A DNA stretch of 64,000 bases from Escherichia virus TH22, in sequence record MT446396.1. The stretch is one strand, 5' to 3'. Numbering within the stretch: position 1 is the stretch's first letter; each line of letters begins with the position of its first letter. A model generated the notes under the pieces. That model ran no database searches. It was not told the origin of the DNA and saw nothing but the letters and a program-made list of their open reading frames with translations. Below, one piece after another: positions 5,291 through 64,000 of this stretch. Position numbers and translations under genes: made by a program.

Positions 5291-5316
5291 TAAATACCCC
5301 TATATAAGGGGGTATT

Positions 5317-5808
5317 ATGAATATATTCGAAATGTTACGCATAGATGAAGGTTGTAAGTTGGATTTGTACCGTGACACCGAAGGCTTTTGGACCATCGGC
5401 ATCGGTCAATTGATAACTAAGAACCCATCGAAAGACGTTGCTCGCGCTGAGCTGGACAAATTAATGGGTCGTGTTTGCAACGGTAGGATTACCCAGATTG
5501 AAGCTGAAACCTTGTTTAACCGTTCAGTGGAAAAAGCTAAAGCCGGAATCTTGAAACATCCTGTCTTAAAACCTGTTTATGATGTACTGGATGAAGTTCG
5601 TCGTTGCGCACTCATTAATATGGTATTCCAAATGGGTGTAGCTGGTGTAGCTGGTTTTCCTAAGGGGCTGCGATTGCTCAAGGCTAAATCATGGGAAGCT
5701 GCTGCTAAGGAACTGGCTGACTCAAGATGGTATAAAGTCCAGACTCCGAACCGGGCCAAACGAGTTATTGAAACTTTCCGTACTGGAACTTTTGACGCAT
5801 ACAAATGA
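5317..5808 (+). CDS. e: lysozyme (endolysin) e
   Basis: 163 aa; [12 protein letters not shown]...GFWTIGIG matches T4 lysozyme nearly residue for residue over the N-terminus. Confidence 0.95.
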
Positions 5809-14868: not shown

Positions 14869-15875
14869 GAACAGTTATGAAGGGATATTTTGGGTCCCAT
14901 CTTTATGGAACAAGTACTCCGGAATCTGATGTCGATTTTAAGGAAATCTTTGTTCCACATCCACGTGATATTCTGTTAGGTACGGCAATGAATCATACAA
15001 ACTTGAACACGAATAACACGGCATCCAAAAACACTAAAGACGATGTTGACCACGAGCTTTATAGCCTGAAATATTTCTTTAAACTGGCGGCTGAAGGTGA
15101 AACTGTTGCTCTGGACATGATTCACACTCCGGCTAACCTGGTAGTCAAATCCGATTTACCAGATGTATGGAAGTTTATCCAAGACAACCGTTCACGGTTC
15201 TATACGACCAACATGAAAGCATATTTGGGGTACGTCCGTAAGCAAGCTTCAAAATATGGTGTTAAAGGTTCTAGACTGGCTGCTTTACGTGGTGTACTGG
15301 CAATTGTTAACCAGATTCCTGAACAGTGGGTTGACTACCAAGAAGATGGTTCGACTAAACAACGTCGCACTAAAGTTGAAGATATTAAGCATCGTCTCCC
15401 AGAGAATGAATTCTGTGAATGGGTATTCCATAACCATGAGAAAACCGGTCCTCAAACGTTTTATACTGTTCTCGGTCGCAAATACCAAACTACTTTGTCA
15501 TTAATCGAGCTTAAGCAATCTCTGAATAAACTTGATGCCGAATATGGTGAACGCGCTCGTAAGGCCGAAGCTAACGAAGGTATTGACTGGAAAGCTCTGA
15601 GCCACGCTTATCGTGCTGGATATCAGTTGAAGGAAATTTATATGACCGGTGACCTTCAATATCCTTTACGAACAGCCCCATTTATCCTTGAAATCAAACA
15701 AGGGCTACATGCTTTTAAAGATGTACAAGCTGAACTTGAAGCAATCGTCGATGAAGTCGAAACCAATGCCATCTGGGCGGCCAAGAACGGCATGCCCGAT
15801 AAGGTAGACATGAAGTTCTGGGACAAGTTTGTTGAAGAGGTATATCTTGACAACCACAATTCCTATTATCGTTAA
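14865..15875 (+). CDS. nucleotidyltransferase-fold protein (Pol-beta superfamily-like)
   Basis: N-terminal GSHLYGTSTPESDVDF fits the GS-x(9-13)-DhDh NTase motif; ATGA overlap with upstream gene. Confidence 0.55.
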   Translation: MRTVMKGYFGSHLYGTSTPESDVDFKEIFVPHPRDILLGTAMNHTNLNTNNTASKNTKDDVDHELYSLKYFFKLAAEGETVALDMIHTPANLVVKSDLPDVWKFIQDNRSRFYTTNMKAYLGYVRKQASKYGVKGSRLAALRGVLAIVNQIPEQWVDYQEDGSTKQRRTKVEDIKHRLPENEFCEWVFHNHEKTGPQTFYTVLGRKYQTTLSLIELKQSLNKLDAEYGERARKAEANEGIDWKALSHAYRAGYQLKEIYMTGDLQYPLRTAPFILEIKQGLHAFKDVQAELEAIVDEVETNAIWAAKNGMPDKVDMKFWDKFVEEVYLDNHNSYYR

Positions 15876-17348: not shown

Positions 17349-18197
17349 ATGTCACAAGCAATTAATGAAATTCGTTCTGAAGTTAAAAAAGTTGTTAAAT
17401 TTAACAGTATTCCAAGCACTAAAGATGTGGTTTTAAATGTTCTATATATGATGTGGAATAAGTTCAATGTTTGTACTAATTCTGCTGAATTCACTAAAAT
17501 CTTTAATAAAACAACGGGCTTGCTTACATTAGAAGACCGAGTCATGAAATCTCTTCAACGTTCAGGTATGTTGTCTCGTGCTAATGTCAAAATTTTACTT
17601 AAAAATTATAATAAAGGTTATGACCTTTATGGTCGTGCGATTAGCACCATGACATTTGATGAAGTGGTCAAAGACCTTCATACTAACCAACGACGTTTAT
17701 TAGCTCTTGGTGCTCGTTTAGCAAGCGGTCAAGATAAACAAATGACCTTTAAAACCAATAATTCTTTAGATTATAAACTATTTAATGTTATTAAAGGTCA
17801 AAATGAAGGCGAATACAGTATTTCTTCTTTTAGCGGATGTCAATACGAAAACTGGAAATTCCACCTCCGTTTGGCTTTGTCTGAACTCGAACATCATGGG
17901 GTTCTTACCTTCTATGATGTTAAAACTGGAGGTGTCCAGCGCATTAAACTATGTCAAATTAAAGACCGAGTTGTAGTTGAGAGTCCTTCAGAGCAAGCTC
18001 CTAAAATGGAACCTGTTCCAGTGCGAAGCAATGAAAAATATTCAGAGCAAATTGAGCTTTTCACTAAACAGATTGAAGAACTTAACATCACTATCCAGCA
18101 GCAAGATGATGAAATTTTCCGTCTGTCAGGACTGAACAATGCAGCGAAAGCCGAACGTCAGAAACTGATGAACGTTATTGAATTGCTTAAGGATTAA
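17349..18197 (+). CDS. hypothetical protein with C-terminal coiled coil
   Basis: Extended -10 promoter (AAGGATGGTATAAT) upstream; heptad-like C-terminus. Confidence 0.5.
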   Translation: MSQAINEIRSEVKKVVKFNSIPSTKDVVLNVLYMMWNKFNVCTNSAEFTKIFNKTTGLLTLEDRVMKSLQRSGMLSRANVKILLKNYNKGYDLYGRAISTMTFDEVVKDLHTNQRRLLALGARLASGQDKQMTFKTNNSLDYKLFNVIKGQNEGEYSISSFSGCQYENWKFHLRLALSELEHHGVLTFYDVKTGGVQRIKLCQIKDRVVVESPSEQAPKMEPVPVRSNEKYSEQIELFTKQIEELNITIQQQDDEIFRLSGLNNAAKAERQKLMNVIELLKD

Positions 18198-22854: not shown

Positions 22855-22889
22855 TAAATACCCTTATCTAATAATGGTAAGGGTTTATT

Positions 22890-46212: not shown

Positions 46213-46378
46213 GATTTCGGTCTTCCAGATTTTTGAAGAATATGAAATCGTGTCGCAAGACCAAGAAGCAATCCATGTTATCGCTGATGATGGTGTTACC
46301 TGGATTATTCCGTTGTATCATGAAGACACTTATGAAGTGACTGATGCAAATGGTGATAAAGCTATCTTCGTTGTATAA
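46187..46378 (+). CDS. hypothetical acidic protein
   Basis: 63-aa ORF overlapping upstream stop. Confidence 0.35.
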   Translation: MSAMCTGSKISVFQIFEEYEIVSQDQEAIHVIADDGVTWIIPLYHEDTYEVTDANGDKAIFVV

Positions 46379-46397
46379 ATAGCGGAAAGGGGGTGTT

Positions 46398-46565
46398 ATG
46401 AAAACATTCAAAGATTTTATCAACGAAGATATGGCTGCCGGTGATGCAGGTGGAAACCCAACTAATATCGCAACAGGTACCACTTCCGGGGCAGTTGTCA
46501 ATAAAGGCCCTGAACAAATCCCATCAAAAAAGCGTAAGAATAAAGACGATAAACCTACAGTATAA
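46398..46565 (+). CDS. hypothetical small protein with CTS-like N-terminus
   Basis: 55 aa; N-terminus MKTFKDFINED resembles internal-protein capsid-targeting sequence; SD GGAAAGGGGG. Confidence 0.4.
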   Translation: MKTFKDFINEDMAAGDAGGNPTNIATGTTSGAVVNKGPEQIPSKKRKNKDDKPTV

Positions 46566-46597: not shown

Positions 46598-47626
46598 ATG
46601 TCATATATTGATAGAGAATTTGCAGTCAGAGCTTTATCGTATCAACCACGTTATAGAGAAGTCACCGGGAGCACATTTAAGGCAAACTGTCGTTGCAAGG
46701 TTTGTGGTGACTCCCAGAAAGATTCGCACAAGGCTCGATTCTGGGCGTATACCAATCCGTCTGATGGTGCGGTTTACGTGAAATGTTTTAACTGTGACTA
46801 CTCCACGCATATAAGCAAATACATAAAAGAGTTTGAGCCGGATTTGCACCGGGAATATATGGTTGAGAAGTACAAGGAAAACGCCTTCGGTCGACAACGT
46901 AATGAAGTTGCAGAAGCTCCGAAAGAACAAGAAAAAACTCCGGTTATTGAAGAGCTTGCTTTTTGCGAAAGAATCGATACTTTACCAGAAGCGCATCCGA
47001 TAGTTAAGTATGTGAAAAGTCGGTGTATTCCGAGCAATGTTTGGAACCGGTTATGGTTTACAAACAAATGGCCTGCATTAGTTAACTCCGTTAATCCTGG
47101 GACGTATAAGAATGAAACGAATGAACCACGCTTGGTTATTCCTATCTTCAACGGCAAAAAAGAAATCGAATCTTTCCAAGGACGAGCTCTTCGCAAAGAT
47201 GCACCACAAAAATATATCACAATCAAAGCTCACCCAGAAGCTTCCAAAGTCTATGGCGTAGACAAGATTGATGAGCGCAAGCGCGTGTGGGTAATGGAAG
47301 GTCCGATTGATAGTTTGTTTATCCCTAACAGCATTGCGATAACCGGTGGAACATTAGCATTGGAAGCCGTTCCTTATGCTGAAACCCGAGTATGGGTAAT
47401 GGACAACGAGCCAAGACATCCGGATACGATTAAACGTATGAAGAAGCTCGTTGAAGCGGGTGAAGCCGTTATGTTCTGGGACAATGCACCATGGCATACG
47501 AAAGACATAAATGAGATGGTTAAATCGGAGGGCGCAACCCCTGAACAAATCGAATCATATATGGCCGATAACATTGCTCAAGGGTTGATGGCGAGAATGC
47601 GACTTTCGAAGTACGCAAAAGTTTAG
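46598..47626 (+). CDS. 61: DNA primase gp61
   Basis: 342 aa; N-terminal zinc-binding region CRCKVCGDS...CFNC and Toprim-like core; matches T4 gp61. Confidence 0.95.
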   Translation: MSYIDREFAVRALSYQPRYREVTGSTFKANCRCKVCGDSQKDSHKARFWAYTNPSDGAVYVKCFNCDYSTHISKYIKEFEPDLHREYMVEKYKENAFGRQRNEVAEAPKEQEKTPVIEELAFCERIDTLPEAHPIVKYVKSRCIPSNVWNRLWFTNKWPALVNSVNPGTYKNETNEPRLVIPIFNGKKEIESFQGRALRKDAPQKYITIKAHPEASKVYGVDKIDERKRVWVMEGPIDSLFIPNSIAITGGTLALEAVPYAETRVWVMDNEPRHPDTIKRMKKLVEAGEAVMFWDNAPWHTKDINEMVKSEGATPEQIESYMADNIAQGLMARMRLSKYAKV

Positions 47627-47747
47627 GAAGGGATTCCGGTAAGTTCCACAGAAAAACATCAAGAGCTAAAAAGCCCATGATGTTTCTTGTCTTTCTTACT
47701 GGTTAATTTCCAAATCCGATGGAATAATATTCACATTATTCCATCTA

Positions 47748-47942
47748 TATAAGGCCGATTAATGCCAGTAAAATATCTACAACTGATTCGAGTGCAATGA
47801 CTGGTAATATAACACCATGTGTCAATGCAACAGGGGCAACAACGAAGTTCCAGAGTAGAACTAAACAGAGTATCGAAAGGACCAGAATCGTTCGCTTACG
47901 ACTGCCTTTGATGGCTTGAATTAGACTAGATAGTTTGAGCAT
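47748..47942 (-). CDS. hypothetical small hydrophobic protein
   Basis: Only non-overlapped minus-strand ORF; ATG preceded by AAGGAGG; two hydrophobic segments. Confidence 0.45.
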
Positions 47943-47961
47943 ATATCCTCCTTCCGTGTAT

Positions 47962-47990
47962 TTATGCTTCAAACCAATATGATATAATTA
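47962..47990 (+). promoter_or_regulatory. middle promoter (MotA box) upstream of gene 56
   Basis: TATGCTTCA MotA-box-like about 12 bp upstream of TATAAT. Confidence 0.5.
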
Positions 47991-48027
47991 ACATACAAAA
48001 TAACATGAATTGATAAGGAAAAATATA

Positions 48028-48546
48028 ATGGCTCATTTTAATGAATGTTCACAACTGATTGCCGGTGTTGATAAAGCTGAAGAAGCTTATGACAATGCAA
48101 TTACAAAAGGTACTGACCCGCTGCAGATTATGCTTGATATGCAGAAATCATTGCAAGTTCGTCTGGCTACTGAAAAACCAGAATATAACTCACATCCAGA
48201 TGAATTGGCTACTGCAGGTGATGTTGTTGCATGGCTTCGTAACCAGAAAGATTATGTCGACGACGAATTCCGTGAACTTCTGACTTCTCTCGGTGGTATG
48301 TCTAATGGCGAGAAAGCTGCATCTAGTGTATGGAAACCATGGAAAGTCCAACATGCTGAATTCCGTAATCGTCGTATTGATGAGTTGTCTCCCGAAGACC
48401 AGCTCGAAATTAAATTTGAGATGATTGATATCCTGCACTTTGTTCTGAACATGTTCCATGGCCTTGGACTGACTGCAGAAGAAATCTTTAAATTGTATTA
48501 CCTGAAAAACGCTGAGAACTTTGCTCGTCAGGACCGGGGTTATTAA
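48028..48546 (+). CDS. 56: dCTPase/dUTPase gp56-like (all-alpha NTP pyrophosphatase)
   Basis: MAHFNEC...DPLQIMLDMQ...ETAGDVVAWLRNQKD...IDILHFVLNMF...IFKLYYLKNAENFARQDRGY closely matches T4 gp56. Confidence 0.9.
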   Translation: MAHFNECSQLIAGVDKAEEAYDNAITKGTDPLQIMLDMQKSLQVRLATEKPEYNSHPDELATAGDVVAWLRNQKDYVDDEFRELLTSLGGMSNGEKAASSVWKPWKVQHAEFRNRRIDELSPEDQLEIKFEMIDILHFVLNMFHGLGLTAEEIFKLYYLKNAENFARQDRGY

Positions 48547-48548
48547 GT

Positions 48549-48556
48549 TATAAATA
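48549..48556 (+). promoter_or_regulatory. late promoter TATAAATA upstream of soc
   Basis: Exact TATAAATA about 30 nt upstream of soc ATG. Confidence 0.6.
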
Positions 48557-48587
48557 CACCCGTAATTAAACAACAAAGGAGTTAATT

Positions 48588-48821
48588 ATGGGTGGTTTCG
48601 TTAATATCAAAACCTTTACGCATCCAGCTGGTGAAGGTAAAGAAGTTAAAGGTGTTGAAGTATCTGTTCCGTTTGAAATCTATTCAAATGAGCATCGTAT
48701 TGCAAATGCACACTATCAGACTTTTCCTTCCGAAAAGGCCGCTTATGTCACCGTAGCGTCTAGTGCAGCTGATTGGCGAACTAAGAACGCGGCGATGTTT
48801 ACGCCTACCCCAGTAGTTTAA
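48588..48821 (+). CDS. soc: small outer capsid protein Soc
   Basis: GFVNIKTF...AHYQTFPSEKAAY matches T4 Soc; late promoter TATAAATA 30 nt upstream. Confidence 0.85.
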   Translation: MGGFVNIKTFTHPAGEGKEVKGVEVSVPFEIYSNEHRIANAHYQTFPSEKAAYVTVASSAADWRTKNAAMFTPTPVV

Positions 48822-63431: not shown

Positions 63432-64000
63432 ATGTTTAATATCAAATGTATGTCTAAAGCCGAACAAGCTGATGTGGTCCAGATGTATTCAACGGGCAAT
63501 TATACCCAGCCTGAATTGGCAGAATATTTTGCTGTGTCCGTTGACACCATTCGCCGCGTTTTGAAAAATGATAAAGAATCAAAATTAGCTAAAACCATTT
63601 CTGCATCACTGAAAGCAGCTGTTGGTGTGGCGATTAATGCTCCGGTGACAGTAACGGTTGAAGTCCCGGTTACTGATACAATCGGCGGAAGCCGACCGGA
63701 AATCGTATGGAATGCATCAAGCAAATTCGTTTCCATCACTGAAGGCCGTACAGTCTGGAACGCAACAAAAGACCATAAACACTTTGATGATATTATTCAG
63801 GCACTCAAAGAATCTCGTTTTGACGATGCTATCGAGTTTATCTCAATCAAAGCTGCAGTACAAAAATATGTGAAAGGCGATGTGCGTATTGAAGGCGGTA
63901 GTCTGTTCTATCAGGGAATTGAACTGCGCTCTGGTCTGGTTACTCGTATCATCGATTCAATGCAAAATGGCGAAGACTTTGAATTCTATCTGCCGTTCCT
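63432..64000 (+). CDS. rIIB: rIIB protein (5' partial, runs off window end)
   Basis: NIKC..K.EQA.VV..YS.GNYTQ.ELA and RIEGGSLFYQGIELRSGLV match T4 rIIB. Confidence 0.9.
   Translation, partial: MFNIKCMSKAEQADVVQMYSTGNYTQPELAEYFAVSVDTIRRVLKNDKESKLAKTISASLKAAVGVAINAPVTVTVEVPVTDTIGGSRPEIVWNASSKFVSITEGRTVWNATKDHKHFDDIIQALKESRFDDAIEFISIKAAVQKYVKGDVRIEGGSLFYQGIELRSGLVTRIIDSMQNGEDFEFYLPF

Follow-up and report, generated by a model that had tools for sequence, protein, structure and literature searches.

The interval between the primase gene 61 and the dCTPase gene 56 of Escherichia virus TH22 raises the question of whether a small open reading frame (ORF) on the strand opposite to its neighbors is a genuine gene and, if so, when it is expressed and what its product might do. 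We analyzed a 64,000-nt stretch of this genome (record MT446396.1), which we refer to as the window. It comes from a Gaprivervirus, a T-even relative of SP18 and VR20 (Tevenvirinae): over bases 47000 to 48600, identity is 100% with Escherichia phages TH55 and UPEC07 and about 92% with VR20 and SP18, and all four are Gaprivervirus members. The equivalent 64 kb of a 99%-identical relative holds about 145 annotated plus-strand genes, running in the order lysozyme, gene 49, nrdD, 55, 45, 43, uvsX, 41, 61, 56, soc, modA/B, and rIIA. The genes at the locus are as follows.

46598-47626, plus strand: gene 61 (primase), convergent with the small ORF.
47745-47942, minus strand: small ORF of 65 amino acids plus a TAG stop, MLKLSSLIQAIKGSRKRTILVLSILCLVLLWNFVVAPVALTHGVILPVIALESVVDILLALIGLI; phrog_2024/RB69ORF029w family, T4-like subtype.
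48028-48546, plus strand: gene 56 (dCTPase), ATG at 48028, divergent from the small ORF.

The gap between the end of gene 61 (47626) and the ATG of gene 56 (48028) measured 401 nt, in agreement with the roughly 400 nt given by a first-pass annotation made from the sequence of the window. The same annotation put the length of the protein at 64 residues, which needs correcting, as positions 47748 to 47942 comprise 65 sense codons. A TTG start at 47972, which would give a 75-aa version, was rejected; it has no Shine-Dalgarno sequence (SD), and the extension is not conserved. We then asked how unusual the orientation is by scanning minus-strand ORFs of at least 35 aa that were not covered by plus-strand ORFs. 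Two edge ORFs aside, the small ORF was the sole free-standing one in the 64 kb, as its description as a lone antisense gene had implied. The two exceptions lie at 63454 to 63739, and we take them to sit under a plus-strand gene (rIIB in the relative) that runs off the end of the window. Every minus-strand ORF of at least 110 aa overlaps plus-strand genes, and in the 99%-identical phage the small ORF is the sole minus-strand gene annotated in the shared region.

Next, we looked for homologs. The ORF matched the PHROGs profile phrog_2024 ("unknown function") over its full length (E = 6.4e-26, residues 1 to 65 on positions 1 to 65 of 65), as did 18/18 diverse family members, and it shares the family's length range (60 to 69 aa), slot, and W-N..P..G..P..E/D motif; it is thus a phrog_2024 member. 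Using tblastn, we found a homolog in 697 phage records, always adjoining the 3' end of the primase gene. At least 11 Tevenvirinae genera, among them that of T4, keep the family in this one slot, on the opposite strand and convergent with gene 61, which answers the first-pass proposal to check conservation in related phages. The family appears in records under the names JS09_0153, AR1_033, CPT_Merlin33, and UPEC07 QUL77728.1, and as RB69ORF029w in Mosigvirus; the small ORF itself is annotated as a "hypothetical protein" in UPEC07 and VR20 and as a "holin family protein" in EAWsc9. Labels of "Holin," "DNA packaging ATPase," "dCTP pyrophosphatase," and "head morphogenesis" carried by family members were set aside, as we found no domain or family match behind them: searches of Pfam and NCBIfam with the protein, and of Pfam with 18 family members, returned nothing significant. 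A literature search found no paper on the small ORF. The gene is already catalogued as a hypothetical family but is uncharacterized.

T4 itself has a homolog, located in the seemingly "empty" 310 nt that separate dam from gene 61.

NC_000866 (NC_000866.4) 17738-17938, plus strand: T4 homolog, with a GATAAATA box and a AAAGGAGG SD.

The T4 protein has 66 aa and is 49% identical to that of the window; for comparison, the primase of the window phage is about 60% identical to that of Tequatrovirus among the matches listed. Neither of the two T4 records checked (NC_000866 and MT984581) annotates the gene, and the matching regions of SP18 (NC_014595) and IME08 (HM071924) carry no annotation either. 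A conserved gene with a late-type promoter is thus missing from both of these records, although T4 is among the best-studied viruses, and studies relying on these annotations would miss it. Being small and tractable, the gene is also an easy target for testing.

To extend the family further, we ran a profile search against 1.84 billion representative proteins, which gave 8 matches, including four distant relatives (E values of 5e-5 to 7e-4), and no link to any characterized family. The contigs of two of these four remote relatives consist of T4-like gene blocks with the gene in the same slot between 56 and 61, again on the opposite strand. When three distant relatives were used as tblastn queries, their hits, together with annotated records, brought Karam-, Kanagawa-, Moon-, Gelderland-, Jiaoda-, Marfa-, Mosuguk-, and Dhakavirus into the family. 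The slot holds no such gene in Krischvirus JSE, Tegunavirus phiR1-RT, a Slopek-like Klebsiella phage, Acinetobacter phage Mokit, or Aeromonas phage avDM4, where the next same-strand gene directly follows gene 61; the family is therefore not universal. Individual records differ in other ways. In T6 (AP018814), the family's usual ATG reads ATT (1492 to 1692 of the compared stretch), and the ORF annotated there is shorter, begins at an internal ATG, and is called a "putative head morphogenesis protein." In the fPS-65 record, the 5' end of the small ORF contains an annotated terminator, which lies on the primase strand (1496 to 1536 of the compared stretch).

The substitution pattern was that of a coding sequence. 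Pairwise dN/dS values (Nei-Gojobori) were 0.06 to 0.30 within Tequatrovirus and Mosigvirus and 0.35 to 0.63 within Gaprivervirus, the latter resting on just 5 to 13 nonsynonymous and 5 to 7.5 synonymous changes; between clades, dS was saturated (>1) and dN was about 0.45. Length changes were confined to in-frame three-codon deletions, except in the UNVERIFIED record ERS-1, in which the primase ORF is also truncated. Across subtypes sharing 26 to 36% identity, W31, P37, and G43 never vary, N32 and P47 hardly do, and position 52 always holds Glu or Asp. These results show that the protein is under purifying selection. Taken with the full-length profile match and the 697 homolog records, dN/dS values well below 1 confirm the initial call of a gene at this position: the small ORF is a genuine, conserved phage gene and not an artifact.

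We then examined the upstream region for indications of when the gene is expressed, which involves the following sites.

47947-47953, minus strand: SD AAGGAGG, 4 nt before the ATG at 47940-47942.
47959-47966, minus strand: CATAAATA, 16 nt before the ATG, a probable late (gp55) promoter box of the T4 type with a variant sequence.
47965-47971 and 47983-47988, plus strand: MotA box TGCTTCA and, after an 11-nt spacer, TATAAT, a candidate middle-type promoter of gene 56.
5289, 11803, 22853, 46374, 48549, and 60444 (plus strand) and 47959 (minus strand): copies of NATAAATA.

The near-perfect SD and the octamer one base away from the late-promoter sequence, both pointed out by the first-pass annotation, were found as described and proved to have counterparts throughout the family. 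An AGGAGG-type SD stands 2 to 6 nt before the ATG in 16/16 lineages, and an N[A/T]TAAATA octamer stands 12 to 22 nt before it, likewise in 16/16 lineages, the upstream DNA being otherwise unalignable. The first base of CATAAATA is C, not T. The perfect TATAAATA box occurs in three of the 16 lineages (Entb_45, Marfa, and IME08), and the box in RB69-like and T6-like phages is AATAAATA.

The motif is rare in the window and is placed almost exclusively before genes. VATAAATA was observed 3 times versus an expected 17.3 ± 4.3, and ATAAATA had 7 copies compared with 20 to 40 for heptamers of similar composition. All seven copies of NATAAATA lie 16 to 39 nt upstream of the start of a same-strand ORF; these ORFs include lysozyme, endonuclease VII, and Soc (names taken from relatives) and a 61.1-like ORF, and across the 64 kb the minus strand carries a single copy, that upstream of the small ORF. 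ATAAATA alone thus seems to mark late promoters in the window, which offers a practical rule for annotation, since the motif occurs here almost only as a gene-proximal late promoter. The 61.1-like ORF (55 aa, 46374 to 46565, upstream of the primase gene) has a perfect TATAAATA with the identical 16-nt spacing to its ATG and may also be expressed late. We also observed GC-rich inverted repeats immediately following the late boxes that precede the lysozyme ORF and the gene 49 ORF (5297 to 5316, CCCCTATATAAGGGGG, and 22861 to 22889, CCCTTATC...GGTAAGGG, respectively), which we take to resemble the hairpins that mask the ribosome-binding sites of T4 e, 49, and soc.

[quoted passage not shown] It is at −13, the position reported as least conserved in T4-like phages (PMC1524935, PMC2988020), that CATAAATA deviates. 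Moreover, early and middle transcripts of T4-type phages have a single polarity, and late transcripts come from either strand (PMC2988020), so a gene on the opposite strand would be transcribed late. A T4 dRNA-seq preprint reports 150 phage start sites, 22 of them antisense. The T4-type late unit (gp55/gp33/gp45-dependent), whose transcripts appear only once DNA replication has begun, consists of a TATAAATA-type box at about −13 to −6 and needs no −35 element, a pattern that CATAAATA fits as a one-base variant. The late genes soc, e, and 49, located in the T4-type early region, share such a box 16 to 39 nt upstream of the start codon, but they lie on the same strand as the early genes, whereas the small ORF is the only opposite-strand case in the 64-kb window. 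Overall, it is very probable that CATAAATA works as a late promoter of variant sequence, placed back-to-back with the MotA-type promoter of gene 56. Transcription, by the host RNA polymerase bearing the gp55 sigma factor of the phage, would then begin near 47953 and leave a leader of about 13 nt.

The arrangement of the two promoters had suggested a regulator coupled to gene 56. The TGCTTCA-11 nt-TATAAT arrangement presumably represents the T4 middle-promoter pattern, and the reported overlap with the MotA box is real, with CATAAATA and TGCTTCA sharing 2 nt (47965 and 47966). However, the gene on the divergent side changes: T4 has dam there, Kanagawa-, Moon-, Karam-, and Marfavirus have an unnamed small ORF, and Mosigvirus and Gaprivervirus have gene 56, whereas the constant partner across genera is the 3' end of the primase gene 61. 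Coupling to gene 56 is unlikely, because the divergent neighbor varies while the 3' end of gene 61 does not. As a side observation, the divergent gene upstream begins at a distance of only about 20 nt in Kanagawa-, Moon-, Karam-, and Marfavirus, and its start codon (CAT on the strand of the small ORF) abuts or overlaps the late box, e.g., CATATAAATA.

The region downstream of the ORF, up to the primase stop codon, contained two hairpins and traces of a second gene copy.

47718-47745, minus strand: perfect 11- to 12-bp hairpin, GATGGAATAAT-6 nt-ATTATTCCATC, starting at the TAG stop.
47647-47685, minus strand: terminator-like 14-bp hairpin with arms 47654-47667 and 47672-47685, followed by UUUUUCU.
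47623-47745, minus strand: pseudogene remnant of a second, Dhakavirus-type family copy, retaining ...KKDKK..MGFLALDVFLWN.

The hairpin at the stop codon is 100% complementary (−14.7 kcal/mol, z = −3.6). The second one (47654 to 47685), of which the 5-pair terminator-like match of an initial scan is the tip, folds with −20.6 kcal/mol on the minus strand (z = −4.1) and −13.7 kcal/mol on the plus strand (z = −2.1), and the minus-strand 3' region as a whole folds far better than its shuffles (z = −4.9). A late mRNA would stop at the 47647-47685 hairpin and U-run, before reaching gene 61, and would be monocistronic, with a length of about 300 nt.

The origin of this region was traced by aligning the DNA of the window, VR20, and the Dhakavirus IME08. 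VR20 has a 46-aa fragment, MGFLTLDVFLWNLLVVPIAAIQGVHLPQVTMEHI..., between the ORF and the primase gene. The alignment showed that the stretch corresponds to a whole Dhakavirus-type gene, including its SD and ATG, which is intact in IME08. This second copy is disrupted in VR20 by ATG-TGA and two 2-nt deletions, and the window shows further damage, an internal deletion of 85 nt. The old stop of the remnant overlaps the primase stop, as the stops of intact genes do elsewhere, and the hairpin at 47718 to 47745 is built from the former ribosome-binding site and start region of this copy, as judged by homology to the IME08 gene start. Thus, a T4-type copy bringing its own late box and SD entered this genus immediately upstream of the ancestral copy, which then decayed and whose remains now form both hairpins. 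One working copy is kept per genome. The fixed position in at least 11 genera, together with replacement by a homologous copy and not loss, argues for a useful role.

We next considered the protein itself, which had been described as a two-helix hydrophobic peptide. The description of a small, membrane-type peptide stands, but only residues ~18 to 40 are robustly hydrophobic family-wide, and the predicted fold is not simply two-helical. By hydropathy, the segment from ~18 to 40 is membrane competent in all subtypes, while residues 44 to 65 are marginal, with a summed Hessa-scale energy of +6 to +12 in the T4 and RB69-like sequences compared; this second segment includes prolines and two acidic positions. 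The net charge over the first 19 residues is +5, and the C terminus (...DILLALIGLI) is hydrophobic. AlphaFold, run with a 14-sequence alignment, returned a model with a pLDDT of 78 and helices at residues 2 to 11 (amphipathic), 15 to 41 (long), and 51 to 64 (short). Searching with this model, Foldseek found no PDB match, and among viral models it found family members only.

Basic flanks of membrane segments stay in the cytoplasm (the positive-inside rule), which together with the net charge of +5 suggests an N-in orientation with a single span. The 65-aa product would thus insert into the inner membrane with its basic N terminus in the cytoplasm and would cross the bilayer once through the helix at ~15 to 41. 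The 24 C-terminal residues, made up of a loop with proline and a 14-residue helix bearing the invariant acidic residue, would lie at or in the periplasmic leaflet. A polar Asn in a membrane helix commonly drives helix-helix association, and the Trp-Asn pair within the helix, with the conserved Pro, Gly, Pro, and Glu/Asp, points to specific helix-helix packing, be it self-association or binding to a different membrane protein. With these residues, the product hardly looks like a plain hydrophobic anchor. Set against the T4 and RB69-like versions that were compared, the second hydrophobic segment of the window protein has the greater hydrophobicity, and in this phage the protein may instead adopt a two-span hairpin topology.

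Several known systems offer points of comparison. Like the product of the small ORF, which is probably made late, holins and pinholins (lambda S105, phage 21 S68, T4 T) and the antiholins RI and RIII are small phage proteins acting in or at the inner membrane. Holins have at least one transmembrane domain, and residues ~18 to 40 would provide one. However, the small ORF differs from holins and antiholins in having no sequence or profile match to them, no charged C-terminal tail, and no endolysin neighbor, and in having one convincing span. The i-spanins and RI-type antiholins have an N-terminal membrane anchor and a periplasmic domain of ~70 aa or more, whereas the small protein has only ~24 residues after its helix; the antiholin RIII is cytoplasmic. 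The T4 proteins Imm, Ac, and Sp (superinfection exclusion and acriflavine sensitivity) are also tiny envelope proteins that are dispensable in the laboratory, but they are early genes on the early strand, whereas the small ORF lies on the strand opposite to all early and middle genes of the window and matches only phrog_2024. Type I toxin-antitoxin peptides (Hok, Ldr, and TisB) are short and hydrophobic too, and antisense transcription across the small ORF is possible: a scan inside it found no plus-strand promoter-like site, but read-through from gene 61 could still yield antisense RNA. Against this likeness, the small ORF belongs to a lytic phage, and the match to Ldr_toxin was limited to an E value of 0.1 in 1/18 members; the conserved late promoter, moreover, favors programmed expression over a type I toxin.

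Taken together, these analyses favor a conserved T4-type phage gene making a late inner-membrane microprotein that acts by specific intramembrane contact, a reading to which we assign a probability of roughly three in four on the basis of the sequence and the structural model. As to the process served, we suggest only tentatively, as the most likely role, that the protein is a dispensable accessory factor in late events at the cell envelope, namely, lysis timing, lysis inhibition, or membrane-bound assembly. More speculatively still, the gene left unannotated in T4 could supply a missing membrane component of T-even late physiology, acting through its invariant Trp-Asn either as a partner of the lone transmembrane helix of holin T that tunes lysis timing or inhibition or as a cofactor of prohead initiation.

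A direct contribution to lysis, by a holin, a pinholin, or another lethal, toxin-like peptide that permeabilizes the membrane, would also account for a small, membrane-embedded, and probably late protein, and two database entries do name family members "Holin" or "holin family protein." We take these names to be submitter or propagated labels, with no domain or family match behind them; among Pfam, NCBIfam, and the PHROGs holins we found no match, the best being GTA_holin_3TM with an E value of 0.1 in 1/18 members. The charge sits at the N terminus and the C terminus is hydrophobic, whereas holins typically have a charged tail, and in most genera the second hydrophobic stretch is too short (a 14-residue helix) and too polar to span the membrane. 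The genomic context offers no link to an endolysin, with the lysozyme ORF 42 kb away (5317 to 5808) and the primase and dCTPase genes as neighbors, and these phages presumably carry a dedicated holin T already. The holin-like function first proposed for the ORF thus lacks the expected tail, linkage, and family match, and its toxin-like alternative likewise has neither a toxin family match nor a plus-strand promoter-like site in the scan inside the ORF. We therefore regard a lethal peptide of this kind as unlikely. The same anatomy as that of the microprotein with a specific contact would also serve in another late, membrane-linked process, such as protection against superinfection or lysis from without, the blocking of a membrane-bound host defense or protease, or prohead or portal assembly at the inner membrane. 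The presence in the same gene block of gene 40, a membrane chaperone of head assembly, and the retention of one copy even after replacement are in line with such a role. However, the known exclusion proteins Imm and Sp are encoded by early genes, whereas this gene is on the late-only strand, and neither the profile nor the Foldseek searches found similarity in sequence or fold to characterized proteins; we consider these processes quite improbable.

It is also conceivable that the RNA itself is what functions, with a late antisense transcript silencing gene 61 or disturbing transcription of gene 56 and the ORF being incidental. In most genera the stop of the ORF overlaps the primase stop by 4 nt, so that late transcription would run antisense into gene 61, and in the window the late box runs into the MotA box in front of gene 56. 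Yet selection acts at the protein level, with the residue motif kept at 26 to 36% identity, and the strong SD is conserved in 16/16 lineages. Furthermore, the minus-strand hairpin and U-run before gene 61 weaken an antisense role in this phage, since little antisense RNA should reach gene 61, and the divergent neighbor differs among genera. An RNA function is accordingly very improbable, and the late inner-membrane microprotein remains the reading that we favor.

Beyond the gene itself, we noted differences among relatives in what else they carry. In pEC-M719-6WT.2, a 99%-identical relative, an extra minus-strand gene at 14910 to 15656 of the compared stretch encodes 249 aa with a collagen-like G-x-x repeat (GPPGPKGEPGVPGPKGDPGGDG) and is without a counterpart in the window. 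Several relatives (RZ, P479, DK-13, VR26, and IME08) have homing endonuclease genes (segF, mobE, and others) within the 61-56 interval, which is a hot spot for mobile elements.
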